DNA of 64,000 nt from an uncultured Alphaproteobacteria bacterium (GTDB lineage: Bacteria; Pseudomonadota; Alphaproteobacteria; Rs-D84), in NCBI GenBank assembly GCA_905233975.1, contig CAJOGD010000001.1:162635-226634 (forward strand), in the 5' to 3' direction. Below are positions 18,942-61,557 of the stretch, in pieces. The notes below the pieces were generated by a model. It made no database searches. It saw nothing but the letters and a program-made list of their open reading frames with translations, and was not told where the DNA came from. Position 1 is the stretch's first letter, and each line of letters begins with the position of its first letter. A program made the position numbers and the translations under genes.

Positions 18942-20060
18942 TTATTGTTCCTGGGGGATGTAAAGATTTGCGTTTATTTCCGGCCCCGCCCGAAACGTTC
19001 CCGATCCAGACGCTTTGAAATCGCGGCCGATTGTGTCATACATTCCAACATCGTTCCCATGTCTTGCCGGCACAAGGTTTTGAATAAGTTCCCCATTTCT
19101 GTACACCTTATAACTTTTAATGCTGCCGTTAAAATAATACCCGTAAGATCCGCCATAATACCGCGCAAACAAATAATTGTTTGCTGTATTTGTAAATGAA
19201 AACGGTGTGAAATTAACGGTGTTATTATCTATGCTAAGACGTCCCGATACAAAATCGTGAACAATTTTATGCCAATTTGTATCCACAGGTATATTGGTGT
19301 TGACTTTGGTGTTTGTTGAATCATAGGCGTAATATGTTTGATATGCATAAAACGCGCTGCTTTCCCCGGTTTCGTACACCCCATATATGGCACCATATCC
19401 TGTCGCAGAAGAATTTTTAAATTCCGTTTCAACGACATCTGTCCCGGCAAGTTTTATTTCTGTATCAATCCATTGTGTGCCGTCGGATTCAATCCATTCC
19501 AATGGTGTGTAACCGGTCGGTAAAAGTGTGTTATCCGTCGTTGGATTATGTATCGAATAAACCCAACAAAGGTCTGTATCGGGTTTAAATTCCTTACATT
19601 TAAATTCGTTATCAAGTCCGGTCTTTAATGCCGCATTAAATGTTTTCGCATCGATAAGGTTGTCCGCTTGTTCGGTGTATGTGCCGGTGGCCTGATAAAT
19701 CCCCTTTTGCCCTATTCCGCCCGGCTGTCCGGTATATGTGACGGCGGTGTGGTCGTTGACGGCGGCGATGTCGTCTTGTTTCTGATTTAATTTTGTATTA
19801 ACGCCACCAACCATGGGAAGTGATGTGTCGGTTGTGTCGCTGCCCAAATCGGATTTAACTGTGCGTTTCTGCACCGTTCCGGCCGAATCGGTGTATTCCA
19901 TGGCTTTATTCGTGTCCACGCCAAATTTGTTTTGTCGCGTACTAAGTTCATGTTCGACATATTTTAATGACGTCGCGGTTTTCCGGTCCGCCGCTTCTTC
20001 GGCAAACGCTGGCAGTACCGCCGCAATCAACCCGAACAATAAAAACTTTTTTAAATGCAT
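18942..20060 (-). CDS. Secreted variable-family protein, paralog 1 (conserved N-terminal domain, unique C-terminal domain, ends YIPQEQ)
   Basis: Sec signal MHLKKFLLFGLIAAVLPAFA|EE. About 170 aa are nearly identical to the ORFs at 38121, 45432 and 58487. SD 'aagggagag'. Confidence 0.8.
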   Translation of the reverse strand: MHLKKFLLFGLIAAVLPAFAEEAADRKTATSLKYVEHELSTRQNKFGVDTNKAMEYTDSAGTVQKRTVKSDLGSDTTDTSLPMVGGVNTKLNQKQDDIAAVNDHTAVTYTGQPGGIGQKGIYQATGTYTEQADNLIDAKTFNAALKTGLDNEFKCKEFKPDTDLCWVYSIHNPTTDNTLLPTGYTPLEWIESDGTQWIDTEIKLAGTDVVETEFKNSSATGYGAIYGVYETGESSAFYAYQTYYAYDSTNTKVNTNIPVDTNWHKIVHDFVSGRLSIDNNTVNFTPFSFTNTANNYLFARYYGGSYGYYFNGSIKSYKVYRNGELIQNLVPARHGNDVGMYDTIGRDFKASGSGTFRAGPEINANLYIPQEQ

Positions 20061-20456
20061 ATCGCTCTCCCTTTTTCGTTTTAATAACCACTAAAACAAA
20101 CACCGCAATGGAAACCAAGCGGTCGGGGTGTTAGCGTATCACTCAAAACCAAATGATTGTCGACTTTTGGCAAAGCCTGTTGTATAACCGACGCACCCCG
20201 AACCTTTTTATTCGGGGAAAACATAACGATGCAAAATTACAGAAAATTGTCGGATTACGATGTATTCTAATAATTCTGCACCGGGTTTGATAGAGCACGC
20301 TAATGCCCCGAACCAGATTCCCATCTAGTTCAACGCTATTCTATCAGAACACACCAAAACGGGTCAAGGATTTTTTAGTGGTATTTTGCAAACGGGCCGT
20401 CGGGACCGGCTTACTTTTCACTTTTCTTTTATATTTTTTACTATTATAATGCGGGC
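20061..20456 (-). promoter_or_regulatory. Type-A conserved 5' leader: extended -10 box plus a structured ~270-nt 5' UTR
   Basis: Box cTGATAGAATAG (rc of 20336-20347). It shares long blocks (gatgggaatctggttcg, catcgtaatcc, caccccgaccgcttggtttccattgcgg) with the leader at 46398-46800. It has the hairpin ccccgaataaaaggttcgggg. Confidence 0.55.
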
Positions 20457-21500
20457 ATGTTAAAAATGATAAAATCTTTGATGATGCCACGCGCAACGAA
20501 AGTGACCGCGGGCGAATTGGCGGAAATGTTCGGTTTGGAACTGCGCGGAAATCCGAACACCGTTATATCGGGCGTTGCGCCGATCGCGGACGCGCGTGCG
20601 GGTCAAATTGCGTTCTATTCGACGGAACAGAACAGCAATGCGTTCAAGATTTTACCCGTATCTGTTTTGGAAAATACGCGCGCAAGTGTGATTTTATTGC
20701 AACCGGAAATGGTGTCGCATGCGCCAAATGGTGCGACGCTGTTGGTGTGCAACAGCCCGCGCGGCGAAATCGTAAAAATTTTGGGTGTGGTCTATCGCGA
20801 ACCGCCGCGGCGCGGAATATCTTCCGACGCGGTTATCGAACGTGGCGTGTTCTTTCGCAATCGGCGCAGTGTTTATGTCGGTCAATTCGCAACAATCGAA
20901 TCCGGCGCGGTTATCGAACCGGATGTGAAAATTTACCCGAATGTATATATCGGTCGTAACGTCACGATTGGTCGCGGAACGGTCGTTCATTCGGGCGCAC
21001 ATATTGAAAACGCAACAATCGGCGCGGATTGCGTAATTCACAATGGCGCATCAATTGGCAAGGACGGATTCGGCTATACCCGCCAAGACGGCCACAATGT
21101 CTTTATTCCGCACGTTGGTCGCGTTGTTATCGGCAACCGCGTGTCAATCGGTGCAAATTCCTGTGTCGATAGGGGTGCGCTTACTGATACAATGATTGGC
21201 GACGGGACCAAGGTGGATAACCTTTGCCAAATCGCGCATGGTGTTGTGATTGGTCGCGAATGCTTTTTGGCGGCGGGCGTCGGAATCGCGGGCGGTGTTA
21301 AAATCGGCGACCGCGCATTGCTTGCCGGGCATGTCGGCGTTGCCAACGGGGTCAAGATAGGTAATGATACCGAGGTTGGCGCGAACAGCGGCGTTTTCCG
21401 CGATATTCCGGACGGCGGTCGCCATATGGGCTATCCGGCGATGCCCGGGACGGAATTCTTGCGCCACTATGCGTGGGTAAAAAAACATATGAACGATTAA
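20457..21500 (+). CDS. lpxD: UDP-3-O-acylglucosamine N-acyltransferase
   Basis: Left-handed beta-helix hexapeptide repeats and an LpxD-like N-terminus. The true start may be an internal Met a few codons downstream. Confidence 0.8.
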   Translation: MLKMIKSLMMPRATKVTAGELAEMFGLELRGNPNTVISGVAPIADARAGQIAFYSTEQNSNAFKILPVSVLENTRASVILLQPEMVSHAPNGATLLVCNSPRGEIVKILGVVYREPPRRGISSDAVIERGVFFRNRRSVYVGQFATIESGAVIEPDVKIYPNVYIGRNVTIGRGTVVHSGAHIENATIGADCVIHNGASIGKDGFGYTRQDGHNVFIPHVGRVVIGNRVSIGANSCVDRGALTDTMIGDGTKVDNLCQIAHGVVIGRECFLAAGVGIAGGVKIGDRALLAGHVGVANGVKIGNDTEVGANSGVFRDIPDGGRHMGYPAMPGTEFLRHYAWVKKHMND

Positions 21501-21515
21501 TCAAAAGGGAACAAA

Positions 21516-21956
21516 ATGATTGATGCAACGGGTATAGAACGTGTTATTCCACATCGCGGCCACATGCGACTGGTTGATGAAATTCGCGAATTTACGGATA
21601 AAACCGCGACGGGCATAAAGTATGTGCGCGACGACGAATTTTGGTGCGCGGGTCATTTCCCGGCAAAATCAATCATGCCCGGCGTGTTGATAGTAGAGGC
21701 ATTGGCCCAAACCGCGTGCTTTACGATACTGAATGCAATCGGAAACAACGGCGGCAAAGCATTGGGCTATTTCGTCACAATCGAAAACGCAAAGTTCACA
21801 CATATGGTCGTGCCGGGCGATGTGTTGGAATTAAAGATAGAAGAAGTTGGCGCAAAAATGAAGCTGCACAAATTCGTTGGAAACGCGTTTGTAAATGGCA
21901 AACGTGTCGCAACGGCAACCTTTTCCGCCATGTTGGACAACGACCCACAGATTTAA
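21516..21956 (+). CDS. fabZ: 3-hydroxyacyl-[ACP] dehydratase
   Basis: Hot-dog fold, HFPAKSIMPGVLIVEALAQ motif. It follows lpxD as in the lpxD-fabZ-lpxA cluster. Confidence 0.85.
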   Translation: MIDATGIERVIPHRGHMRLVDEIREFTDKTATGIKYVRDDEFWCAGHFPAKSIMPGVLIVEALAQTACFTILNAIGNNGGKALGYFVTIENAKFTHMVVPGDVLELKIEEVGAKMKLHKFVGNAFVNGKRVATATFSAMLDNDPQI

Positions 21957-22009
21957 ATCGTTATTCCCAAAAATACTTTTGCGCCTTCACCGATTAGAAA
22001 TGCGGCGAA
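21953..22009. repeat. 57-bp direct repeat, copy 1 (a duplicated 3' end of the VIT-family gene). Copy 2 is at 23632-23688.
   Basis: ttaaatcgttattcccaaaaa(t/c)acttttgcgccttc(a/g)ccgattagaaa(t/c)gcggcgaa. 54 of 57 positions are identical. The two copies flank the 22010-23631 cassette. Confidence 0.85.
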
Positions 22010-22038
22010 GCGTAAGCGAAGACGGACGCGCCTGCGTT

Positions 22039-23376
22039 TTATTGAGCATTGGATGATATTGTTTGTATAAAGTGAACCGGCAAATCTGAACAATTAATAG
22101 TCCCTCCTTCAGATATATTTGCAGTATACTCTGCATAATACATAGCGCAATTACTTATATTCGCACATAAATGTTCGTTTACGTATGCCTGGGGGGAAAT
22201 ACCATCTGGCATATTAACAGCATACTCTGTGTTAATAAAACCTGACTGAGTATTAATGTTTGTGACACTATGTCCCGCTTGCCGTTTGAGTATACTGAAC
22301 CTGTTGTTACCTTTTTCACATAAAGAGCACCATTTATCCGAAAAAGTTCCACCACAGAAATTCAAGGCAAAATCTACAATTTCGCTATCTGATGCATCCG
22401 TTTCATATGTATAATATTTTACAAGTTCACCATACCGAGAATTTAAGTTAATAAGGTTAAAATATGGTTCTTGTTGTGTGCCACCCCCCGGATTTGTTGC
22501 GAGAGAGGCAATGGCTTCTTGAACAGCGCCCGCAGTAATCAATTGGTCTTCGTCCTCCATGTTTTCTAAACTTGTTGCTATCATTGTTGGTCTTATACGA
22601 ACTTCTTTTGCATTAGATGAATTGGTGTGCAATTCTATATAATCGCTACCGATGGCAATAGGGGTCCACCCACCATTTGGGGCACCAAGACTTAACGTTG
22701 TTGATTGGTCTTGTTTTTCATTCAGGGCGTTTGTTACGATTTTATTTTGTACGGGGTGTGTACTGGTTGTGGATAGGTTTCCGTCAACGACAATAACATC
22801 GTCGCCACCAATTACAACGTCACCAACATGAACAACGACCAAATTACCGTTCGGGTCGGTCCAGGTCATATTTCCCCTATCGTCAAGTTGGGGCAATTTT
22901 TTGATTACACTCGATAGTAAATTATCTATTTCTTCCTTTGTGTATGTTTTGGATTCGACGCTAGATGTGATTTTATTATCAATATTTGATTCTGTTATGA
23001 CTGTGCTTTGTTCTGCCTTGGCATCGACGAGTTTAGCTTGTAATTCTTCAATTTGTGAATTGATTTCGGCAAGGTCTTGTTTGGCGGCTTCTTGGTCTTT
23101 TATTGGCTTGGATTTCGAACTTTTGAAAAGTTTGGCTATTGCCATACGCGCTTCGGTTGATTCGTTTTTAACGGGTGTGGCAACAGATGTTGCATTGGAC
23201 ACAGGCGTTGTTTTTAATGTTGGGGCGCGCAGTGTTCCGGCGCGCGCCGATGTGATTGCTTGGGGTGTTGAATTTGTATTGTTTCCTGTTTTGGGCACCC
23301 GCACCGATGCCGCACCAAACGCCGCGGTTGTTATTGTGACAAGTGCTGTCGTGGTGAAAAGTGTTTTGGCCTTCAT
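22039..23376 (-). CDS. Secreted Ser/Thr-rich coiled-coil protein (445 aa), cargo of the inserted cassette
   Basis: Signal peptide MKAKTLFTTTALVTITTAAFGAAS. A coiled coil (EINSQIEELQAKLVDAKAE) is followed by a beta-rich C-terminus (VVVHVGDVVIGGDDVIVVDG). It is preceded by the family -10 box. Confidence 0.7.
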   Translation of the reverse strand: MKAKTLFTTTALVTITTAAFGAASVRVPKTGNNTNSTPQAITSARAGTLRAPTLKTTPVSNATSVATPVKNESTEARMAIAKLFKSSKSKPIKDQEAAKQDLAEINSQIEELQAKLVDAKAEQSTVITESNIDNKITSSVESKTYTKEEIDNLLSSVIKKLPQLDDRGNMTWTDPNGNLVVVHVGDVVIGGDDVIVVDGNLSTTSTHPVQNKIVTNALNEKQDQSTTLSLGAPNGGWTPIAIGSDYIELHTNSSNAKEVRIRPTMIATSLENMEDEDQLITAGAVQEAIASLATNPGGGTQQEPYFNLINLNSRYGELVKYYTYETDASDSEIVDFALNFCGGTFSDKWCSLCEKGNNRFSILKRQAGHSVTNINTQSGFINTEYAVNMPDGISPQAYVNEHLCANISNCAMYYAEYTANISEGGTINCSDLPVHFIQTISSNAQ

Positions 23377-23631
23377 TTTTTCTCCTTGCCTTCGTGCTAG
23401 GTAAACAGGACATAAAACAGCCCCGAACCAGATTTCATGGATTCAACGTTATTGTATCACAAAAAATGGACAATGAAAAATATATAATTTTGGTTGCGTT
23501 TTTGAACACCGTCATACCGCGGAAACGCGGTATCGTGTCGAACTTTCTGTGAATTTGCTATACGGATGAAACCACCCACAAAAATGTTACACATTTTTGT
23601 GGGGCTCGGTACTGCGGTATGACGGTGATTC
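23377..23631 (-). promoter_or_regulatory. Short leader with the family -10 box, plus a MITE-like palindromic module at the cassette's right end
   Basis: Box TGATACAATAA (rc of 23451-23461). Palindromes gtcataccgcggaaacgcggtat and cccacaaaaatgttacacatttttgtggg, also found at 38008-38075. Confidence 0.5.
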
Positions 23632-24120
23632 TTAAATCGTTATTCCCAAAAACACTTTTGCGCCTTCGCCGATTAGAAACGCGGCGAATGTGACAAGAAA
23701 GCATACCGAAAGCATTTCAATAAATGCCGGCCAGAATCTCTGGGCGTTTAGTTTTGATTTAAGAAAATTGAAAAAGAATATTATCGCGACCGCCACAACA
23801 TAGGTCATGATTGTTGCGATAATTGTATTCGACGTGAAAACAAACGGAACCAGCAGCATGCCGGCCGTTGCAACATATGCGCCGCCCGTCATAAACCCGC
23901 GCGCGGCCGCAATGCGCACGTTGCCACCCGCCTTTTGCGACAGGTATTCCGACGCCGTCATTGAAAGCCCCGCCGACATTGCGGCGATTGTCCCGGTCAG
24001 CACGATGACATATTGCGTTGCGTCTGCGAATGCAAGTCCCACAACCAGCCCCAGCGTCGAAACCAACGCATCGTGCATGCCCAAAACCAATGATGACCAA
24101 AAAGAATCTTGCGAAGTCAT
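23632..24120 (-). CDS. VIT1/CCC1-family (DUF125) membrane protein, iron/manganese transporter-like
   Basis: Multi-TM pattern with conserved G and E residues typical of the VIT family. Its 3' end is the template for the duplicated 57-bp repeat. Confidence 0.5.
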   Translation of the reverse strand: MTSQDSFWSSLVLGMHDALVSTLGLVVGLAFADATQYVIVLTGTIAAMSAGLSMTASEYLSQKAGGNVRIAAARGFMTGGAYVATAGMLLVPFVFTSNTIIATIMTYVVAVAIIFFFNFLKSKLNAQRFWPAFIEMLSVCFLVTFAAFLIGEGAKVFLGITI

Positions 24121-24174
24121 GTAAAAAATTTACCCCATTTTCATGGGGCAAATATACAAGATTAAATTCATATT

Positions 24175-24792
24175 TTACCATGTTGGCGCATGGTCGCCTT
24201 CCTTTACAATCGGGCGTTCGTCTTCCCACACCGAAAGACCGGTTTTAATATCGGTAAGTGTCATTTGCAAATAATATTCTACGCGCGTATCAATCGATGA
24301 AAACCAACCAGATTGCAATTTCATATTACGCTGAATCATCTTTCCTGAAAGCGACATGTTCGGCGCAACCAACGTTCCCTTTTGTGCGATTGTTGATTGG
24401 TCATATTCGTCATCACCGCGCGCCGCACGCACCGCATATGTTGATGTGTCTTCGGAGTAATCGTTATTTTCAAACGCGGTTGAAACCTGCGCCCGACCAG
24501 AATTGATAAGCGTCATGCGAATTTTTTTAACCAAAATATCCGTATCGAACCGCTGCATAGTATCGTTTTTTATTTCACCGATTCCAATCACCGGATTTTT
24601 TACGCGTGCAAACGCGCCACTGGCCAGCATAGATTTAGTCATGGCTTCTGCGGTTTGTGTCCAATCGCGATATTCCAATTCCATTACATGTTGCATATCG
24701 GCAACTTCCTTTTCGTCGTTCAAATCAACAACGCGCACTTCGCCACAGCCAACCAATGCGGCACATAGCGCAAACGGTAAAAGTTTTTTCAT
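24175..24792 (-). CDS. Lipoprotein, LpoB-like (penicillin-binding-protein activator family)
   Basis: Lipobox ALVGC. Size and motif pattern resemble LpoB (COG3417). Confidence 0.4.
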   Translation of the reverse strand: MKKLLPFALCAALVGCGEVRVVDLNDEKEVADMQHVMELEYRDWTQTAEAMTKSMLASGAFARVKNPVIGIGEIKNDTMQRFDTDILVKKIRMTLINSGRAQVSTAFENNDYSEDTSTYAVRAARGDDEYDQSTIAQKGTLVAPNMSLSGKMIQRNMKLQSGWFSSIDTRVEYYLQMTLTDIKTGLSVWEDERPIVKEGDHAPTW

Positions 24793-24804
24793 GTTTTCTC
24801 CTTT

Positions 24805-26022
24805 TTATTTTGTTTTCATTATTTTTATATCTTGCCGGCCGTCCGCCAACCGAACATAGACCAAATAATTTCCGGGCGTTTCAATATTAACCTTTGCAAT
24901 AACATTACCATGCGATTTTAAATCAATCAAGCCATTGTTCTTCACGCGCAGCACCGAAATAGTTTTCGGCAGTGTCGCCCACGTCCGCACCTCTGCATTC
25001 GTTGTCGATTCAGAATAAATCAGTGACAACAACCCCAAGATTTGCGCCGCATCGGAATCAGAATTAAACATCGTTGCCTGTAATGCCGCACGTCCCGCCG
25101 CCGCGGCCACCGCACGCAGAACTTCATTTGTGTGATATTCGTTATATTCCGTCATAAACATTGCGTCAACATTCGCGATTTGTTCCGCGCCGTCAATCGT
25201 GACGTTTCCATTCAACAAAATCGGCTGCGATACTGCGACCGTCACCAACGACAACCCCTTGTCCACCACCAATGGCAAACTGGTGCGTCGTTCGGTCAGT
25301 TTCGGCGCGAACCCATCTTCGATAAAAATCCAAATGGTGTTTTTGGGTTTCTTTTTTGATTGCGCCAAATTTAAATCGTCCACAACGAACCCGTTTTCCG
25401 GCACCATGCCATGCGCACGCCCAAGGTATGTCACCGCATCATTAAAATCGCCCGCTGTTAGAAAGTAAATACCCGACAAATACATCAGCGCCGGATTCAT
25501 AATATCGCGATACGCGGCCCACCGTTCTATTTTGTCCGCGGTTTCTGTGTGTTCTGCGATTTCTTTCTGGTTGGATTCAACAAGTTTTTTATACGCGACC
25601 GACATGTTTTGTTGTCGCGCATAAGATTGATTGATAATCACACGTGCGTCGTTCCATCGCCCGTCCGCAATCGCCGCCCATAACTGATAATAAGACACAA
25701 ATAATGTGTCCATCATAAACGGCCGATAATCATTTGCGTTTGCGCCGAATGCAAAGTTCGTCGCTTCGCGCCAAAAATCGCCAGATGTGACGTCCGTATT
25801 TTTCCGATTGAATTCTTCGTACATTGCGTCCGCACCGGCAATGTCGCCGTCGTGAAACTTTTTGTCGGCATTGATTAACAGACCAAGGTTGCCGTCGCCC
25901 GCAAATTGTGATTCGCCCGCGGTCATATATGTTCCGCGCACTAAATCCAGGCGCGATTCGACCGCCGCACTGCACCCCGACAACAAAACCAATATCGCCA
26001 AGAAACGTGATAGTTTTAACAT
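24805..26022 (-). CDS. Lipoprotein (405 aa), probably co-operonic with the LpoB-like gene
   Basis: Lipobox LLSGCS. There is a 12-nt gap to the downstream gene. Confidence 0.5.
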   Translation of the reverse strand: MLKLSRFLAILVLLSGCSAAVESRLDLVRGTYMTAGESQFAGDGNLGLLINADKKFHDGDIAGADAMYEEFNRKNTDVTSGDFWREATNFAFGANANDYRPFMMDTLFVSYYQLWAAIADGRWNDARVIINQSYARQQNMSVAYKKLVESNQKEIAEHTETADKIERWAAYRDIMNPALMYLSGIYFLTAGDFNDAVTYLGRAHGMVPENGFVVDDLNLAQSKKKPKNTIWIFIEDGFAPKLTERRTSLPLVVDKGLSLVTVAVSQPILLNGNVTIDGAEQIANVDAMFMTEYNEYHTNEVLRAVAAAAGRAALQATMFNSDSDAAQILGLLSLIYSESTTNAEVRTWATLPKTISVLRVKNNGLIDLKSHGNVIAKVNIETPGNYLVYVRLADGRQDIKIMKTK

Positions 26023-26026
26023 ATTC

Positions 26027-28285
26027 CTATCTTACAACAGGTGCCAAATCTTTCAACTCATTTGTTTGCGGGTTGTAATAGCGCGGATTTCCATTATATT
26101 CCAAAATCGCATGATGCATAGGAATCAGAAATTCCGGCAACGGCGATGACCGCCCCATTTTCATGTATTCTGACATCTTCGGGTCGCTAAACGCCATGCG
26201 CATTTCTGCCTTGATTGGACGTTGATACCAACCTTCGTACAATATAACCGCTTCGGCCGGTTTTCCACCAACAGTGACTTTCAGTTTCATAAGGTCGAAC
26301 TCACTAAACACCGGTTCTTCCTTCTTTTCTTTCTGTTCTGTTTCCTTGCCGTCCGGGCCTTTGACCTTTTTCTTTTCGGTTGTTATCTTCATTGGCATCA
26401 TTTTTGCAAATCGCACAGCGGTATCGATATCGTTTTGGCGGAACACAATCTTTGCCGCCGTTGTTGACATAATCGTTGCCGCCGCATCCGCACCGTATCT
26501 CTCTTGAATCTGGTGAATGTCCTGACCGATGAACAGATACGATATCTGCTGACTACGACCGACATCGGGCCCTTGGATAACGGCCTGCATCTTTTGCATT
26601 TTTGGCATTTCATCAAGCAAGAATAACACCGGATACGGTCCCATTTTTTCGCCACTGCGCCCGACGTGATCCGGTGGATTGGCAAGCAAGAAATTCGACA
26701 TCGTTTCAATAAACATTGCGGTAATTGGATTTAACGCCTTGGCATCAACCATGTTGATGGACAGATACACCGTCACCGGCTTCATTTTTCCGTCGCGTGG
26801 GTCAACCATTCCGCGCATATCGGCAAAATGAAAGTCCGAATGCGACGTCCGATTACGAACGGCGGCGTTGCGGAATATGGCAAGTCCGGTCAATATTGTT
26901 GAAATAATTGACCCGCGTTCGGTTGCCGGTGTGTTGGCCAATTTAGTAAGTTCCGCCACCGCACGATTTGAATACGCGAACGCGCGACATTCGGCCACCG
27001 CACCTTCCAACCAATCTTTCATTGGGTCCGCCATCATAACCGTTTGATCACCCTGCTTTTGTCGTTCTGCTAAATTTGCCGCAACGGCAATTTGCGCTTC
27101 GGTAATCCAATCAAGCATCATGGAAAATGACGCCTCTTTTCCAAGCCACATTTGCGGTATGTTTGCCCACGTTCCGATATGCACGTAATTCATCGCGTTT
27201 AATTCGCCATTCTTCAACAGGCCCATCGCTGCAAAGGCATTTGGGTCATTTACCATTGAAAAATAGTAATCGGAAAGCACCGCCGCGTCTTCGGCATCAA
27301 ATGTTCCGGATTGAAGTCGGCCATAGAAATAATCGTCCGCCTTGGCACGTTCGATTTTCGAAACGATGAATTGAATAAACCCGGCAAGCCCCGCCCGCCC
27401 AGATTGTGTCCAGTGTGGGTCGGCACTGCTGCCCGTTGCATCGGGGACAAGTACATCGCAAATATAATCGACATACAATTCGCGTTGTTCAATGCTAAAC
27501 GGTATATGCCCCGGCGAAAGCGGATTCCACGACGGATAATAAATACCCTTTTCTGGTTCGTCTTGGCCCGCCCAATTCATAATGAATACCGGACCAACCC
27601 GTTCCGAACGAAAGCCACTGGACTTTTCGTCGATTTCCGGTTTTGGGTCGTTTATAATCATCGACACATTTTGGCATTCAAAAATCGTAGGCAACGCAAT
27701 AGCCTGGGTTTTACCGGTTCCCGGGGGCGCCAAGCACAAAACAGATAATGTTTTTGGTAGTTTCAATGGCTTTTTCTTAAAATACCCAAGTACCATCATG
27801 AAACCATCAAACAGGCCCATTTCTTTGACGTCTTTCTCGTTCGCTTCACGCCCAGATTTTTTGTCGAATTCGTCCTTTCCGTTCGGATTGAATTCTTTCT
27901 TTAACGTATCATCGACCAAAAGGTAATACGCCAACACCGGAATCAGTGGCACAATGCACGCAAAATCCGGGTGCATAAGACACCTTACAACCCAATATGG
28001 AATTTCCGCAACGACCGATAGGCCCGCGCTTTGAAACATGTTGGTTAAATAGATTTTCATCCAATTCGCGGTTGCCGGCGACCAACCATATCGCCACAAA
28101 TGTTCAAACAAAAACGAAAAGCAAAACACCAACGCGCATATCAACCACACGCCAATCGACCAACGCAGAGCCCAAAAAACCTGGGCCATGGGGGTTTGTT
28201 CGTGTTCTTTATATGCGCTGGATTTGAAAATATTCAAACCCTTGCTATCTTTGCCCGCAGATAAAATCTTGAACTTTTGAACCAT
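26027..28285 (-). CDS. virD4: Type IV secretion system coupling protein (VirD4/TraG/TraD family)
   Basis: N-terminal TM helices, Walker A LAPPGTGKTQAIALPT, and the family motif IINDPKPEI. 752 aa. Confidence 0.7.
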   Translation of the reverse strand: MVQKFKILSAGKDSKGLNIFKSSAYKEHEQTPMAQVFWALRWSIGVWLICALVFCFSFLFEHLWRYGWSPATANWMKIYLTNMFQSAGLSVVAEIPYWVVRCLMHPDFACIVPLIPVLAYYLLVDDTLKKEFNPNGKDEFDKKSGREANEKDVKEMGLFDGFMMVLGYFKKKPLKLPKTLSVLCLAPPGTGKTQAIALPTIFECQNVSMIINDPKPEIDEKSSGFRSERVGPVFIMNWAGQDEPEKGIYYPSWNPLSPGHIPFSIEQRELYVDYICDVLVPDATGSSADPHWTQSGRAGLAGFIQFIVSKIERAKADDYFYGRLQSGTFDAEDAAVLSDYYFSMVNDPNAFAAMGLLKNGELNAMNYVHIGTWANIPQMWLGKEASFSMMLDWITEAQIAVAANLAERQKQGDQTVMMADPMKDWLEGAVAECRAFAYSNRAVAELTKLANTPATERGSIISTILTGLAIFRNAAVRNRTSHSDFHFADMRGMVDPRDGKMKPVTVYLSINMVDAKALNPITAMFIETMSNFLLANPPDHVGRSGEKMGPYPVLFLLDEMPKMQKMQAVIQGPDVGRSQQISYLFIGQDIHQIQERYGADAAATIMSTTAAKIVFRQNDIDTAVRFAKMMPMKITTEKKKVKGPDGKETEQKEKKEEPVFSEFDLMKLKVTVGGKPAEAVILYEGWYQRPIKAEMRMAFSDPKMSEYMKMGRSSPLPEFLIPMHHAILEYNGNPRYYNPQTNELKDLAPVVR

Positions 28286-34154: not shown

Positions 34155-34197
34155 GTGGGAAAACAACTCTCACTAACCACTTACACTAACCACTAAA

Positions 34198-37847: not shown

Positions 37848-38126
37848 GTGGCGAGTGTTAGTGCTAGTGATTGGTGCGCGGGGCAACAAAGCCCCGCTTT
37901 TTTATTTCCGTCATATCGCGCTATCGGGCCCCGCAAAAAATGCCGTCATACCGCTGTAAAGCGGTATCTCGTCGGAACCGTCGCGGGGTAATTCTCAGAA
38001 AAGCCTAAGGAGATACCGCGTCAGGCGCGGTATGACGGCTTGAAATCACCCACAAAAAACGCTATGCGTTTTTTGCGGGGGCCGATACCGCGGGGTGACG
38101 TCACTAATACTTCCCACTAATTATTG
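37848..38126. mobile_element. MITE-like composite repeat (~280 bp). TTAGTG-type terminal arms enclose nested palindromes.
   Basis: Left arm gtggcgagtgttagtgctagtgattggtg. Right arm gtcactaatacttcccactaattattg. Internal: gcggggcaacaaagccccgctttttt (the accC terminator), gtcataccgctgtaaagcggtat, ataccgcgtcaggcgcggtatgacgg and cccacaaaaaacg..cgttttttgcggggg. Confidence 0.6.
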
Positions 38127-39128
38127 ATTCTGGGGGATATAAATTGTTTCTCCGTTCCAATCTTCTTCCACCGGCGTGGCAAGTGGATAATACACCGTCA
38201 CCGGTGTTCCTGCGGCGTATTGCCCGGCAAGATAGGCTTCAAAATCGGCAATTGTTGGATAATTAACACGCGACACATTCACCGTAAATGAACCAACACC
38301 ATCTATACGGGCATAGCGCAAAGCCGACGTTATTGCATCTGCGTTATACTGGTAATTTCCCTGTCTTGGAAAGTTTGAATAATAACCACTAGTTGCCCAA
38401 TTTAACCACTCTTCTGTTCCGTCCAAAACCTTTACCCCAACGCGTCGTGTGATTTTGTGGGTTGTGGCGTCGTATGAATCGGCATAGTCGCCAACGCGAC
38501 GCAGAATTAGGTTATCTTGTTGATAAAAAACGGGATAAATCGGATTTTCTGGCGTCGGTGTGCCGTCTTGTGTGACGGTGCCGGTCGCCGAAACGTATTC
38601 GGTGTTATTATGTATCGTATAGAGCCAACAAAGGTTGGACACCGGATCGCGGTTATCTTCCCTACATACAAATTCACTATCAAGACCATTCTTTAATGCC
38701 GCGTTGAACGTTTTGGCGTCAATCAGGTTGTCGGATTGGGTGGCATACGATTCGCTTGTTTGATAAATTCCTTTCCGCCCTATTCCACCCGGTTGGCCTG
38801 TATATGTGACGGCGGTGTGATCGTTAACCGGGCCAATGTCATCTTGCTTTTGATTTAATTTTGTATTCACACCACCAACCATGGGCAGTGATGTGTCGGA
38901 CGTATCGCTACCCAAATCGGATTTAACTGTGCGTTTCTGCACATCGCCGGCCGAATTAGTGTATTCCATGGCCTTGTCCGCTTCCGCGGTAAATTTATTT
39001 TGTCGTGTACTAAGTTCATGTTCGACATATTTTAATGACGTCGCCGTCTTGCGGTCCGCGGCTTCTTCCGCCACCGCCGGCAACACCGCCGCAATTAATC
39101 CGAACAACAAAAACTTTTTCAAAAACAT
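38121..39128 (-). CDS. Secreted variable-family protein, paralog 2 (ends YIPQNQ)
   Basis: Start set at MFLKKFLLFGLIAAVLPAVA (SD 'aaggggagg'). The N-terminal 170 aa are conserved. The C-terminus is unique. Confidence 0.8.
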   Translation of the reverse strand: MFLKKFLLFGLIAAVLPAVAEEAADRKTATSLKYVEHELSTRQNKFTAEADKAMEYTNSAGDVQKRTVKSDLGSDTSDTSLPMVGGVNTKLNQKQDDIGPVNDHTAVTYTGQPGGIGRKGIYQTSESYATQSDNLIDAKTFNAALKNGLDSEFVCREDNRDPVSNLCWLYTIHNNTEYVSATGTVTQDGTPTPENPIYPVFYQQDNLILRRVGDYADSYDATTHKITRRVGVKVLDGTEEWLNWATSGYYSNFPRQGNYQYNADAITSALRYARIDGVGSFTVNVSRVNYPTIADFEAYLAGQYAAGTPVTVYYPLATPVEEDWNGETIYIPQNQ

Positions 39129-39385
39129 TTTCCTCCCCTTTGTTCTTTGCACTAACACTAAGTAAAAAACCACAGAAAACGTGTGGTTGGAGGTTAACGA
39201 CTATAATGTTCGGAAAATAGTGGGCTTATTCGATATATTCACCGCCCTCCAACCAAATTAGGTTGGAGGTGTTTTATGTCCCCGCGGACACCGAACATTA
39301 TAAAGGGTCGTTACACCACATCGGCGGAACACCCACCGACAGACCTATTCTATCAAAAAACGGAAATAAAAAACAAGAGAAAAAA
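39129..39385 (-). promoter_or_regulatory. Type-B conserved 5' leader: extended -10 box, a conserved hairpin, and a terminator-like hairpin 35 nt before the start codon
   Basis: Box TTTTGATAGAATAG (rc of 39346-39357). Hairpin cctccaacc-N7-ggttggagg (39245-39269). Hairpin aaccacag-aaaacg-tgtggtt plus a U-run (39163-39189). About 200 nt are almost identical to 58157-58320. Confidence 0.6.
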
Positions 39386-39538
39386 GTGGTTAGTGTTAGT
39401 GATTAGTGTAAGTGGTTTGTGTTCCGCCTTCGCTGTCGCTGCGCCGCGACTGCGCCAGGGTTTCGCCCCGGCTTGGTGTAAAAGAAACGGGCGCAAATGC
39501 GCCCGCACTAATCACTTACACTAACACTTTTCACTATC
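39386..39538. mobile_element. MITE-like repeat with TTAGTG or CACTAA inverted arms (~150 bp)
   Basis: Left arm gtggttagtgttagtgattagtgtaagtggtttgtg. Right arm cactaatcacttacactaacacttttcactatcc. GC-rich palindromes lie inside. Confidence 0.6.
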
Positions 39539-45431: not shown

Positions 45432-46397
45432 TTATTGGTTTTGCGGGATATACACGTTTTTGTATGGTTCGTATTCTGTAATAACGTCACCTTGTTCCAA
45501 CTGCAAACCGTTCGCAAGTTGTATAAGCTGGTTTTGTGAAAATGAACCGAAACTTGAAATATTTATATATGCCGCATTATCTTGGAAAGTCCAACGCCTG
45601 CCTAGCCATATATGGTCGTTATTGGCACTGGTGGTATGCGCTGAAATTATCCGACCGTTTGCATCATAAACATATAAATTAAACTGTGTTGTAATATTAC
45701 AATTGGTAGAACCATTATAACTCAATATATACGTTTCACCGCCAATAATCGGAATAGGTGAACCGTTTGCCAATTTACCAGCGTTAGGTGCTTGGGTCGT
45801 ATACGTGGCGCCCCCATAGCTAGCCCAATCATTAAAACCAATATTGTTTTTATTAAATAAATTTTTGGTGTGTTCTTCGGTTGGGTTGTGTATCGAATAC
45901 ACCCAACAAAGGTCTGTTCCGGGTTTAAATTCCTTACATTTGAATTCTCTATCAAGTCCCTTCTTTAATGCGGCGTTAAAGGTTTTGGCGTCGATTAAAT
46001 TATCCGATTGTTCGGCGTATGTGCCGGTTGTCTGATAAATTCCTTTCTGCCCTATTCCGCCGGAATCACCGGTATATGTGACGGCGGTATGGTCGTTCAC
46101 CGCGGCGATGTCGTCCTGTTTTGTATCAAGTTTTGTATTCACGCCACCAACCATAGGCAGTGAATCTGTCCCGCCATTATCTAAATCCGATGTGACCGCA
46201 CGTTTTTGCACCGTTCCGGCCGCATTAGTATATTCCATCGCCTTGTTTGCTTCCGCGGTAAATTTATTTTGACGTGTATCAAGTTCATGTTCGACATAGT
46301 TAAGTGACGTTGCTGTTTTGCGGTCCGCGGCTTCCTCCGCCACCGCCGGCAATATTGCCGCCATCAACCCGAACAACAAAAACTTTTTCAACTGCAT
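45432..46397 (-). CDS. Secreted variable-family protein, paralog 3 (ends YIPQNQ)
   Basis: Start at MQLKKFLLFGLMAAILPAVA (SD 'aaggaga'). The N-terminus is conserved. The unique C-terminus contains a QLEQGDVITEYEPY jelly-roll-like terminal strand. Confidence 0.8.
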   Translation of the reverse strand: MQLKKFLLFGLMAAILPAVAEEAADRKTATSLNYVEHELDTRQNKFTAEANKAMEYTNAAGTVQKRAVTSDLDNGGTDSLPMVGGVNTKLDTKQDDIAAVNDHTAVTYTGDSGGIGQKGIYQTTGTYAEQSDNLIDAKTFNAALKKGLDREFKCKEFKPGTDLCWVYSIHNPTEEHTKNLFNKNNIGFNDWASYGGATYTTQAPNAGKLANGSPIPIIGGETYILSYNGSTNCNITTQFNLYVYDANGRIISAHTTSANNDHIWLGRRWTFQDNAAYINISSFGSFSQNQLIQLANGLQLEQGDVITEYEPYKNVYIPQNQ

Positions 46398-46800
46398 ATC
46401 GCTCTCCTTTTCTTTTTTCCCCGTCATCCCGCGCTTGACGCGGGATCTCCCCGTTATTGTCGCGGTTTTGCCCCTCGACGGCTCCGACGGGATTCCGGCT
46501 TTCGCCGGAATGACGGCTTTATGTAAGTCTCACTAGCCACTAACACTTACACCAAAATAAGTGCCGCAATGGAAACCAAGCGGTCGGGGTGTTCGAAAAT
46601 CATTTATGTCATTGATTCCCATGGCCTTTTGCAAAAGCATTATAGCCATAGGCACCCCAACATTGGGGTAAAATCTATAACGGTGCAAAACACGAATGGA
46701 GATTACGTGGATTACGATGCTTTGCACCGGACATAAACAGGCTTTCGACAGCCACGAACCAGATTCCCATCTGACTCACATTCATTATATCAAAAACCTT
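46398..46800 (-). promoter_or_regulatory. Type-A conserved 5' leader (second copy) with an upstream palindromic repeat module
   Basis: Box TGATATAAT (rc of ~46784-46793), a perfect extended -10. The covarying hairpin ccccaatgttgggg stands in for ccccgaataaaaggttcgggg of copy 1. It shares caccccgaccgcttggtttccattgcgg. Confidence 0.55.
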
Positions 46801-46817
46801 GGAAATGCGTCAAGACG

Positions 46818-58010: not shown

Positions 58011-58126
58011 GTGCAGTGTAAGTGTTAGTGGTTAGTGATAGTGACGTCATACCGCCCTTCGGCGGTATGACGCGGTTCAGGCAGAACTTACACTAATTAC
58101 TAATACTAATCACTAACACTAACCAC
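58011..58126. mobile_element. MITE-like element (~116 bp). TTAGTG and CACTAA inverted terminal arms surround a perfect hairpin.
   Basis: Left arm gtgcagtgtaagtgttagtggttagtgatagtg. Central hairpin acgtcataccgcccttcggcggtatgacg. Right arm ttacactaattactaatactaatcactaacactaaccac. Confidence 0.65.
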
Positions 58127-58486: not shown

Positions 58487-59437
58487 ATGCAATTGAAAAA
58501 GTTTTTGATGTTCGGGTTGATGGCGGCGGTGTTGCCGGCGGTGGCGGAAGAGGCCGCAGACCGGAAAACGGCGACGTCATTAAAATACGTCGAACATGAA
58601 CTTGATACGCGTCAGAATAAATTTACCGCGGAACAAAACAAAGCCATGGAATACACCGATTCGGCCGGCGTGGTGCAAAAACGTGCCGTCACGTCGGACC
58701 TGGATAATGGTGGAACCGATTCGTTGCCCATGGTTGGTGGTGTGAATACAAAACTAAACCAAAAACAGGACGACATCGCCGCGGTCAACGACCATACCGC
58801 CGTCACATATACCGGGCAGCCCGGCGGAATAGGGCGGAAAGGAATATATCAGGCCACCGAATCGTATGCCAACCAATCTGATAACCTTATCGACGCCAAA
58901 ACGTTCAACGCGGCACTTAAAAACGGACTTGATAGCGAATTTAAATGCAGGGAAGATAACCGCGATCCAGTGTCCGGACTTTGTTGGCTCTATACGATAC
59001 ATAACACCAGTCCGAATTTGTTTGATAAAAATAATTTAACACGCATATATGGTTATTTCCCATCTAGCGGTTCAGATTGGACGTATGTAACCGCAGGATA
59101 TTCAATAAGAATACCATGTCAGCCAAGCACAACATATACGGCGCGTTATAATGGCAATAGTTCCCAAGTTGTATTATCCTTTGCGTCCACAGGCAGTGAT
59201 GAAATACCATTGGGTGGATCGCGTGTTGCATGCACTAACAGTATTCGGCAAAACAACCCAACAATCGATACGCCAATAACATTCACTACTGGTCCAAATG
59301 ACAAATGGCTAATTGTTCAATACAATGTTAACGAACCACAAAATACCGACATGGCAAACAATCTACAGGTTGAAATTGGTTCAACCGCAACACCGTACGT
59401 TCCATACGGCAGCGTTTACATTCCACAGAACCAATAA
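58487..59437 (+). CDS. Secreted variable-family protein, paralog 4 (ends YIPQNQ)
   Basis: MQLKKFLMFGLMAAVLPAVA signal. The N-terminus is a mosaic of paralogs 2 and 3. The unique C-terminus carries LQVEIGSTATPYVPY, a jelly-roll-like terminal strand. Confidence 0.8.
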   Translation: MQLKKFLMFGLMAAVLPAVAEEAADRKTATSLKYVEHELDTRQNKFTAEQNKAMEYTDSAGVVQKRAVTSDLDNGGTDSLPMVGGVNTKLNQKQDDIAAVNDHTAVTYTGQPGGIGRKGIYQATESYANQSDNLIDAKTFNAALKNGLDSEFKCREDNRDPVSGLCWLYTIHNTSPNLFDKNNLTRIYGYFPSSGSDWTYVTAGYSIRIPCQPSTTYTARYNGNSSQVVLSFASTGSDEIPLGGSRVACTNSIRQNNPTIDTPITFTTGPNDKWLIVQYNVNEPQNTDMANNLQVEIGSTATPYVPYGSVYIPQNQ

Positions 59438-61489: not shown

Positions 61490-61557
61490 AAAAATCCGCC
61501 GTCTGGCGGATTTTTTAGCGGTTAGTGTAAGTGTTAGTGGTTAATGCGGGCGCGGTC

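Follow-up and report, generated by a model that had tools for sequence, protein, structure and literature searches.

Genes and repeats between fabZ and the VIT-family gene

The window, that is, the whole 64,000-nucleotide stretch analyzed here, contains two copies of a 57-nt direct repeat between fabZ and a convergent VIT-family gene, separated by an insert of 1,622 bp. The locus comprises the following features:

20250–22009, plus strand: low-divergence tract (lpxD, fabZ and relic), matching cassette-less ("E-type") strains by its few SNPs
20457–21500, plus strand: LpxD (Pfam LpxD/Hexapep)
21516–21956, plus strand: FabZ (Pfam FabA)
21953–22009, minus strand: repeat copy 1, apparently the displaced last 18 codons and stop of the VIT gene (relic), matching empty-site VIT 3' ends at 57/57 positions and recovered by tblastn
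22010–22038, minus strand: 29-bp remnant from the cassette gene stop codon to the relic; its left edge, 22009/22010, is the putative illegitimate joint
22039–23376, minus strand: ORF for the cargo, a 445-aa protein with signal peptide, low-complexity region, coiled coil and Cys-containing C-terminal domain
23377–23490, minus strand: cassette promoter and leader, with a promoter-like TTTTCA-17-TACAAT and upstream TG at 23479–23451
23507–23627, no strand: REP/MITE-like module of nested palindromes, lying between promoter and VIT stop, from inverted repeats and folding
23632–24120, minus strand: intact VIT-family (iron/manganese transporter-like) gene (Pfam VIT1)
23632–23688, minus strand: repeat copy 2, the working VIT 3' end, in frame with the rest of VIT

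The gene identities proposed in the preliminary description for fabZ, lpxD and the VIT-family gene were upheld by Pfam, and the content it placed between the repeats was found as described: a signal-peptide/coiled-coil ORF at 22039–23376, a promoter-like site and a palindromic module. Its view that the insert interrupts an lpxD-fabZ-(lpxA) cluster had to be abandoned, as a convergent VIT gene follows fabZ in 12 related species and no lpxA has thus been displaced.

The duplication was also confirmed, with 54 of 57 positions identical between 21953–22009 and 23632–23688 and mismatches at offsets 21, 36, and 48. Both edges are sharp, similarity being lost abruptly, and about 1.2e-19 such repeat pairs would be expected by chance in 64 kb. 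An assembly artefact is excluded by contigs from three independent samples, obtained with different assemblers (L002/L008, L003, and L005), which match the window at 100% identity over both junctions. Each of the three mismatches falls at a third codon position of the VIT frame and is synonymous, so that both copies encode FAAFLIGEGAKVFLGITI followed by a stop. Copy 1, which includes the fabZ stop TAA (21954–21956), is a 100% match to VIT residues 145–162 by tblastn; it is preceded by no further VIT sequence, the similarity ending at 22009/22010. Only one ORF crosses this copy, a TTG ORF of 46 aa whose frame differs from that of the cassette gene, which answers the reservation that copy 1 might be part of a functional gene. 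The adjoining 29-bp remnant showed no similarity to VIT or to the sequence 3' of the homologous gene in a sister species (L031). A terminator-like structure is absent 3' of the cassette gene in the window, while the L031 gene is followed by a clear hairpin and T-run.

Searches for the family or fold of the cargo protein in Pfam, NCBIfam, PHROGs, PDB sequences and with AlphaFold2 plus Foldseek returned nothing usable; the AlphaFold2 model was confident for residues ~300–445 only, with no fold match in the PDB. A PHROG "integrase" match was rejected as compositional, as it covered the coiled coil alone and the protein has a signal peptide. All 33 relatives found come from gut or rumen metagenomes or from alphaproteobacterial MAGs. 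The GC content of the gene is 0.38–0.42, versus ~0.50 in the flanks. BLASTP detected no relationship between the 445-aa protein and the four-member secreted-protein family of the window, and none of the genes of that family, or of the other cassettes in the window, has duplicated flanks. The locus consequently does not provide the direct evidence for mobile secreted-protein cassettes that had been claimed for it, and the search for analogous flanks at other cassette copies, proposed at the same time, yielded none. Nothing points to autonomous mobility of the cassette.

Upstream of the gene, the arms of the palindromic module (23507–23527 and 23607–23627) are 21 nt long and 86% complementary, and enclose a hairpin with a perfect 13-bp stem at 23575–23603; the DNA folding z-score of the module is −7.9. 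It is one of a family of dispersed repeats whose termini are CGTCATACCGCG, a motif present 11 times versus 0.6 expected. An Rfam search of 21000–25000 gave no match, and the 10-mer GGTTCGGGGC, which several secreted-protein genes have in their leaders, shows no over-representation by itself. Sequence homologous to the promoter and leader also precedes the gene in L031 and in L048, a cassette-bearing strain of the same species as the window, and L031 has a module of the same type at the same position. L048 lacks the module, with 32 nt where the window has 141 nt.

Empty and filled haplotypes and the origin of the two copies

The empty fabZ|VIT site predicted from the window alone was found in five contigs from five samples (L001, L004, L006, L011, and L013), in which the 57-mer is single and fabZ and VIT overlap by 4 bp (TTAA). 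The flanks of these contigs are 97–99% identical to the window and their FabZ and VIT proteins are identical to those of the window. Filled sites came from five samples distinct from the five with empty sites, and cassette alleles differ by 0.7–3.3% among filled haplotypes. The 1.6-kb segment is therefore a genuine presence/absence polymorphism within one species. No genome showed the layout that would have spoken against an insertion, two 57-bp copies without a cassette. JGI metagenome contigs gave no match to any allele of the 57-mer and, for the cassette protein, one partial locus (L037), whose context is uninformative.

In the sister species L031, a homologous gene occupies the same slot and the duplication is absent from the recovered sequence, which shows VIT, module, promoter and gene as a native contiguous block. 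The recovered sequence of L048 is likewise free of duplication, its contig ending inside the cassette gene with the fabZ side not recovered. Five of 12 other species carry different genes in the VIT|fabZ gap, none with duplicated ends; inserts at this position in L015, L016, L018, L022, L024, and L031 do not reuse the same boundaries, as none has duplicated VIT or fabZ ends. By comparison of these genomes, the gap is a recurrent indel hotspot.

The two copies differ in their affinities. Copy 1 agrees at 57/57 positions with the end of VIT in each of the five empty-site contigs, and shares with these strains the exact TTAA overlap with the fabZ stop. At the three mismatched sites, VIT gene positions 441, 453, and 468, empty strains and relic have A/T/A (gene orientation), while copy 2 has G/C/G, like the outgroups L014 and L047. 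The copies thus appear to be two different pre-existing VIT alleles and not one copied target. The mismatches would then be allelic differences older than the joint and do not date it, so that the earlier deduction from them, that the event is not very recent, no longer holds.

The neighboring sequence points in the same direction. Across 20250–22009, the window differs from the empty-site contig L007 by 9 SNPs in 1760 bp (0.5%), as against 3.3% to the left of this tract and 2.2% to its right (Fisher p = 3e-12 and 4e-6); third-codon divergence is 6/495 in the tract versus 58/1307 in neighboring genes (p = 5e-4). SNP density in the population is a mosaic, from 0 to 17% per 250 bp, and the boundaries of the tract are accordingly soft. 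On the other side of the insert, the window shares the L048 allele at positions 171, 225, 372, 375, and 387 of the VIT body and differs there from every empty strain. With copy 1 carrying the empty allele and the VIT body the L048 allele, empty-type DNA begins exactly at the relic. Six SNPs lie close together within the final 118 nt of VIT and were considered as a short foreign tract that came with the cassette; this was rejected because L048 and two further body SNPs assign VIT over its full length to the type of the cassette-bearing lineage.

In two filled haplotypes, L036 and L048, the VIT-proximal copy has the empty-type base(s); for L036, only the base at gene position 468 was actually observed. 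The L036 contig stops exactly 30 nt beyond the insert on either side, a break expected of a perfect 57-bp repeat at k = 31, but an empty-site strain co-occurring in this sample would break the contig at these very points, and we did not retain a perfect repeat in this haplotype.

Possible routes to the duplication

Probably, though by no means certainly, the repeat marks a hybrid joint where a haplotype with the cassette recombined with one lacking it, the exchange having been homologous at one end and illegitimate at the other (22009/22010). Both parents would belong to one species of uncultured gut/rumen alphaproteobacterium. Parent A would have had the order VIT, palindromic module, promoter, 445-aa gene, spacer, fabZ, a layout still seen in L031; parent B would have lacked the gene, with VIT and fabZ overlapping at TTAA. 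An illegitimate join would have fused the sequence ending 29 bp past the cassette stop codon to the VIT gene of parent B, entered 57 bp short of its end, so that these last 57 bp would now sit dead beside fabZ, while the complete VIT gene of parent A would stay upstream. Copy 1, on the fabZ side, is accordingly best read as a displaced and dead VIT 3' end. We infer a single event, whose product is the outcome expected of homology-facilitated illegitimate recombination (HFIR) with imported linear DNA, and cassette-less (L001, L004, L006, L011, and L013) and cassette-bearing (L031 and L048) configurations both exist. In keeping with this reading, the insert and its protein family matched nothing among plasmids, phages and viral contigs. 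HFIR classically removes recipient DNA, and a short duplication is not its usual trace.

Two polarities would give the same product. Either a cassette-less fragment comprising the last 57 bp of VIT, fabZ and lpxD replaced the fabZ side of a cassette-bearing chromosome, with a crossover near 20250, or a fragment comprising the 3' part of VIT, the module, the gene and the 29 bp entered a cassette-less chromosome, with a homologous crossover inside VIT. The divergence pattern modestly favors the former. The duplication may also have been perfect at first and patched later by ordinary recombination, as the empty-type base(s) in L036 and L048 might suggest.

A different scenario is a Campbell-type integration, in which a circle carrying the cassette and exactly 57 bp of VIT 3' end underwent one crossover with the chromosomal VIT end, giving a CIME- or genomic-islet-like arrangement. 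The crossover could be homologous or due to a trans-acting site-specific recombinase using an att-like VIT end, perhaps with the module; taken together, we consider these two routes unlikely, if still to be reckoned with. The topology fits, since direct repeats derive from the target 3' end and the gene is kept intact; the outer edge of the repeat coincides with the VIT stop codon, the module beginning 4 bp beyond it, and the empty-type bases of copy 2 in L036 and L048 are compatible with differing crossover points. In E. coli, circles carrying a gene end gave duplications of 109–950 bp through single crossovers, and did so more often than true HFIR occurred (PMC3240628). However, Pfam identified no transposase, integrase or other recombinase among the about 57 ORFs of the 64-kb window, and there is no second example: the inserts in five further species and L031, like the other cassettes of the window, lack duplicated ends. 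Moreover, 57 bp is short for a RecA-dependent crossover, the window haplotype would require this crossover in the first 8 nt of the 57-nt homology, and the agreement of the window with L048, and not with the empty strains, at five VIT-body sites would be left unexplained.

It is less probable again, in our estimation, that the relic-bearing filled allele is the older one and that empty sites are deletions between the 57-bp repeats, i.e., losses rather than gains. Direct repeats at a distance of 1.6 kb lend themselves to precise deletion, whose product would display the observed TTAA overlap. The divergence among cassette alleles implies that the species has carried the gene for some time, L031 has a homologous gene in the same slot, and overlapping stops were found in none of the 12 other species, so that this arrangement is itself derived. 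Yet such deletions do not explain how a VIT end came to lie over the fabZ stop, for which a cassette-less parent is still needed, and the sampled empty strains are set apart from every filled haplotype by the five VIT-body sites upstream of the repeat; they are thus not recent deletion products of the sampled filled haplotypes.

We would regard as quite doubtful a more elaborate proposal, according to which the VIT 3' end and the REP/MITE-like module form an attachment site for a recombinase encoded elsewhere, which would shuttle single secreted-protein genes with their own promoters between convergent housekeeping genes. Were it true, uncultured gut alphaproteobacteria would possess an integron-like cassette system whose integrase acts in trans.

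Transposition or cut-and-paste insertion, with 57 bp of target duplicated in situ and three later point mutations, would account for direct repeats around an insert that is missing from related strains but is highly improbable: known target-site duplications are typically 2–15 bp, far shorter than 57 bp; the insert ends (22010–22040 versus 23600–23631) have no terminal inverted repeats, strong inverted repeats being internal to the module only; the window holds neither a transposase, nor a second copy of the insert, nor another cassette with such flanks; and the three differences, all synonymous, each separate the empty-strain allele, carried by copy 1, from the outgroup allele, carried by copy 2, so that drift would need three parallel hits (rough p ~0.005). 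Between the two mechanisms envisaged in the preliminary description, recombination through a copied 3' gene end is close to the data, while a long target duplication disagrees with the two pre-existing alleles and with the lack of terminal inverted repeats, transposase and integrase.

Relation to known systems

Reconstructed entirely from metagenomes, the locus offers a natural example of the way in which genes for accessory surface or secreted proteins may be gained, lost and swapped in a tight housekeeping neighborhood without mobile-element machinery, with both parental alleles and the hybrid apparently still segregating in the population. It also calls for caution in two respects, as a long direct repeat around an insert does not by itself amount to a target-site duplication and the mismatches between its copies are not necessarily a clock for the event. 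In this uncultured lineage, the VIT|fabZ gap emerges as a recurrent hotspot for strain-specific secreted proteins, which may matter for interactions with hosts or phages.

Integron cassettes, promoterless ORFs with attC behind them that insert at attI beside intI, are a poor match: here the module precedes a gene that has a promoter-like site of its own, and the window encodes no integrase. The resemblance to genomic islands and CIMEs inserted in gene 3' ends is closer, as the repeats derive from the target 3' end, here that of VIT, and a replacement end keeps the gene intact, but neither the insert nor its surroundings encode a recombinase, only one gene is carried as cargo and the boundaries do not recur in other genomes. 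With Campbell integration (PMC3240628) the locus shares a direct duplication whose length equals the homology carried; it differs in that the circular intermediate would have only 57 bp of homology and that the VIT alleles would require the crossover in its first 8 nt.

The order of a gene body, a working 3' end, cargo and a displaced 3' end is also that of C-terminal displacement in Rhs/CDI/T6SS loci (Jackson et al. 2009; Kirchberger et al. 2017, PMC5361080), for whose orphan ends the same mechanism, a homologous anchor with an illegitimate end, has been proposed (PMC5361080). In contrast to these loci, the duplicated gene encodes a VIT1-family transporter and not a polymorphic toxin, both ends encode the same peptide, the displaced piece is just 57 bp long, and there is neither an immunity gene nor an array.

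HFIR combines one homologous anchor with one illegitimate joint and has been put forward as the origin of displaced "orphan" 3' gene ends (PMC5361080). The kind of event is thus already known and no new mechanism is revealed; the instance is new. By comparison with HFIR as far as it is outlined in work cited there (de Vries and Wackernagel 2002; Prudhomme et al. 2002; Meier and Wackernagel 2003, cited in PMC5361080), our case is deduced from natural haplotypes, and its putative joint leaves a 57-bp gene-end duplication, not a deletion. It shares with HFIR, so outlined, a probable homologous end and an abrupt, apparently homology-free joint, non-homologous DNA beside the anchor, independence from a dedicated recombinase, and the coexistence of both parental configurations in the population.

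The fabZ-VIT junction and its insert

In the window, fabZ and a convergent VIT1-family gene are separated by an insert bounded by two copies of a 57-nt sequence:

20457-21500 (+): lpxD (Pfam)
21516-21956 (+): fabZ (Pfam)
21953-22009: copy 1 of the repeat, on the fabZ side (the relic)
22010-23631: insert (cassette) of 1,622 bp, between the two 57-nt copies
22039-23376 (-): 445-aa ORF encoding the secreted coiled-coil cargo (ORF call)
23479-23451: promoter-like site inside the insert
23507-23627: nested palindrome inside the insert
23632-23688: copy 2 of the repeat, 3' end of the VIT gene
23632-24120 (-): VIT1-family gene (Pfam)

The copies form a direct repeat with 54/57 identities, similarity being cut off sharply at both ends, and the chance expectation for such pairs is ~1e-19 per 64 kb. 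Both translate in the VIT frame as FAAFLIGEGAKVFLGITI*, and all three mismatches are synonymous and fall at third-codon positions. The GC content of the insert is 0.38-0.42, versus ~0.50 in its flanks. Contigs built by different assemblers from three independent samples match the window at 100% across each junction, so the structure is real, and the 57-bp duplication reported in the preliminary description stands.

That description took it as evidence of a mobile cassette, with either a long target duplication or homologous recombination through a copied 3' gene end as the mechanism. This interpretation is only partly supported, and a mobile cassette with a long target duplication is not sustained: we found no terminal inverted repeats at the insert ends and no transposase, integrase or other recombinase among the ~57 ORFs spanning the window, and the two copies are different alleles. 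Plasmid, phage and viral-contig searches with the insert returned no match. A PHROG match of the cargo to an integrase was rejected, as it covers only the coiled coil, and family and fold searches (Pfam, NCBIfam, AlphaFold2, Foldseek) yielded no functional assignment. Analogous duplicated flanks, proposed as a check, were absent from four paralogous secreted-protein genes of the window, for which BLASTP shows no relationship to the cargo.

Alleles at empty and filled sites

Look-up of the exact VIT and FabZ proteins retrieved contigs with flanks 97-99% identical, in which the site is empty, from five samples (L001/L007, L004/L009, L006/L010, L011 and L013); these contain a single 57-mer, and their fabZ and VIT genes share 4 bp (TTAA) at the stops. 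Five samples distinct from the former yielded filled contigs: the window-type L002/L008, L003 and L005, then L036, whose cassette is 99.3% identical to that of the window, and L048, whose cassette gene is 96.7% identical and which lacks the palindromic module. Empty and filled contigs thus coexist within one species, and the predicted presence/absence polymorphism is real.

Since each empty site bears the copy-1 version of the 57-mer, the fabZ-side copy is the end that VIT has in the cassette-less (E-type) haplotype. Copy 2, which completes the window VIT, differs from it at three sites, all of which (3/3) match L014 and L047, the closest outgroup species.

VIT haplotypes at positions 171, 225, 372, 375, 387, 441, 453 and 468
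Window: GGACC-GCG
Filled haplotype L048: GGACC-ATA
All empty strains: AAGTT-ATA
Relic (last three sites): ATA
Outgroup L047: GTACC-GCG
Outgroup L014: AAATC-GCG

The window VIT differs from that of the empty strains at eight sites, every one of them synonymous. By this table, the whole window VIT gene is of the cassette-bearing type and E-type DNA starts exactly at the relic. E-type bases are found in the VIT-proximal copy of L036 and L048; subsequent conversion may account for them, or the repeat may have been perfect at the outset.

From lpxD to fabZ (20250-22009), only 9/1,760 positions differ from the empty strains, versus 3.3% further left (p = 3e-12) and 2.2% beyond VIT (p = 4e-6), the boundaries of this tract being soft because recombination has made a mosaic of the population (divergence of 0-17% per 250 bp). 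At third-codon positions the tract has 6/495 differences and the genes around it 58/1307 (p = 5e-4). Taken with the VIT alleles, the tract points to a hybrid haplotype, of cassette-bearing ancestry as far as 29 bp beyond the cassette gene and of cassette-less ancestry across relic, fabZ and lpxD.

Elsewhere, positions 26439-27938 within a type IV coupling protein gene (TraG/VirD4-like, 26027-28285; product of 752 vs 742 aa between strains) are 6-17% diverged in strains otherwise differing by 1-3%, which suggests a replaced or fast-evolving allele. The 5' part (19500-20000) of a 372-aa secreted-protein gene is likewise 10-14% diverged.

The gap in other species, and repeats elsewhere in the window

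The organism is one of the uncultured Alphaproteobacteria of gut and rumen, close to 'Candidatus Enterousia'. In 12/12 other species examined (L014-L025), VIT and fabZ lie side by side in convergent orientation, so that no lpxA was displaced and the supposed interruption of an lpxD-fabZ-(lpxA) cluster falls away. Their gap measures 21-77 bp in seven of these species, usually with a terminator-like hairpin, and consists of 0.67-2.5 kb of unrelated DNA in five, four of which (L015, L016, L022, L024) have it filled by different signal-peptide or lipoprotein genes; duplicated gene ends were found there in none of the 12. The gap is a cross-species hotspot. Overlapping TTAA stops, as in the empty strains, occur in this species alone among those compared, which makes this layout a derived one too.

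Apart from the protein itself, the nearest relative of the 445-aa product (P0002, 61% identity) occupies the same slot in the sister species L031, in the order VIT, palindromic module (with CGTCAxxCCGCG-type termini, as in the window), homologous promoter/leader, gene, proper terminator, ~300 bp repeat-rich spacer and fabZ; the VIT duplication is absent. FabZ is 96% identical between the two, versus 60-61% for VIT and the cassette protein, and VIT and its downstream gene thus behave like a linked, fast-changing block. Relatives at 49-58% identity (L027, L029, L032-L034) lie in another conserved convergent gap, downstream of and codirectional with mnmE and facing an AMP-binding enzyme gene, so the family has settled in two or more intergenic slots.

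In the L015 species, one strain (L046, SRR4449258, 1036-1185) has a mosaic VIT end, identical to L015 from position 280 to gene position 467 and then showing nine differences in 21 nt, mostly in agreement with the window species (C-terminus ...FLGITI, not ...FFGVEI). Its downstream DNA is rearranged and contains inverted tRNA-Val region sequence located ~6.4 kb off in L015; either an inversion breakpoint or a chimeric contig may be behind this.

Repeats and a protein family in the window:

CGTCATACCGCG palindromic motif: 3012, 23510, 23613, 37909, 37944, 38026, 46422, 58045, 58061, 58449, 59438
CACTAA/CACTTA (TTAGTG/TAAGTG) clusters: 34171-34196, 39390-39414, 39506-39524, 46538-46563, 58019-58037, 61522-61539
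Shared leader element: 23408-23441, 20305-20368, 46751-46814, 39248-39281
Four paralogous signal-peptide proteins: 18942-20060 (-), 38121-39173 (-), 45432-46427 (-), 58487-59437 (+)

The CGTCATACCGCG family (11 occurrences vs 0.6 expected; 10/11 intergenic, adjoining Pfam-less secreted-protein genes) has a similar module in L031 and none in L048; the window showed no transposase cognate to it. The hexamers form arrays of 3-4, several directly after gene 3' ends (six clusters vs 0.02 expected in shuffles), and also occur in the VIT/fabZ gaps of L019 and L031. The leader element, of ~30-60 nt with GGTTCGGGGC...TTTTATG, emerged from a repeat search as common to several secreted-protein genes; the GGTTCGGGGC 10-mer alone is not over-represented, and Rfam gave no match in 21000-25000. 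The paralogous proteins are conserved over their N-terminal ~180 aa (72-87% identity) but not at their C-termini, and match no family in Pfam, PHROG or NCBIfam; the VIT/fabZ gap of L016 holds a distant relative. A second strain polymorphism lies between accC and a 350-aa secreted-protein gene: ~250 bp of REP/MITE-like palindromes in the window (37871-38118), and, in other strains of the species (L038 11838-12990; also L040, L043), a gene for a 339-aa Fic-domain protein that has a terminator of its own, with no sequence in common.

Probable origin of the fabZ-side VIT end

We lean towards reading the feature as a scar left by recombination, in which a VIT 3' end was displaced to a hybrid joint in the manner of homology-facilitated illegitimate recombination (HFIR). 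The simplest history would be that a chromosome with the cassette and one lacking it recombined in a single event, with a first crossover within shared sequence and a second joint made by illegitimate end-joining at 22009/22010, 29 bp past the cassette gene stop; the terminator present in L031 is missing around this joint. The observed product is compatible with either polarity of exchange. Import of an E-type fragment (last 57 bp of VIT, fabZ-lpxD) into a cassette-bearing chromosome is modestly favoured, because lpxD-fabZ diverges so little from the empty strains and VIT is of the filled type throughout. If so, no cassette insertion happened, and a scrap of a neighbour's VIT arrived with fabZ.

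In the main alternative, a circular molecule with 57 bp of VIT would have integrated by one crossover, whether or not a recombinase acted in trans. It has a precedent in E. coli, where duplications of 109-950 bp arose in this way (PMC3240628), but it is weakened by an allele pattern that would demand a crossover in the first 8 nt, by a window devoid of any recombinase and by the fact that other genomes show no recurrence. Empty sites could be produced by deletion between the 57-bp repeats, but it leaves the origin of the relic unaccounted for, and the sampled empty strains do not derive from the sampled filled ones. Duplication in situ followed by drift is disfavoured, as it would require three parallel synonymous changes (rough p ~0.005).

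Read as a recombination scar, the joint has the geometry of HFIR, one homologous crossover and one illegitimate end-join. The same geometry has been proposed for the orphan 3' ends of T6SS, Rhs and CDI loci (PMC5361080); the event would be a fresh instance of an already known kind.
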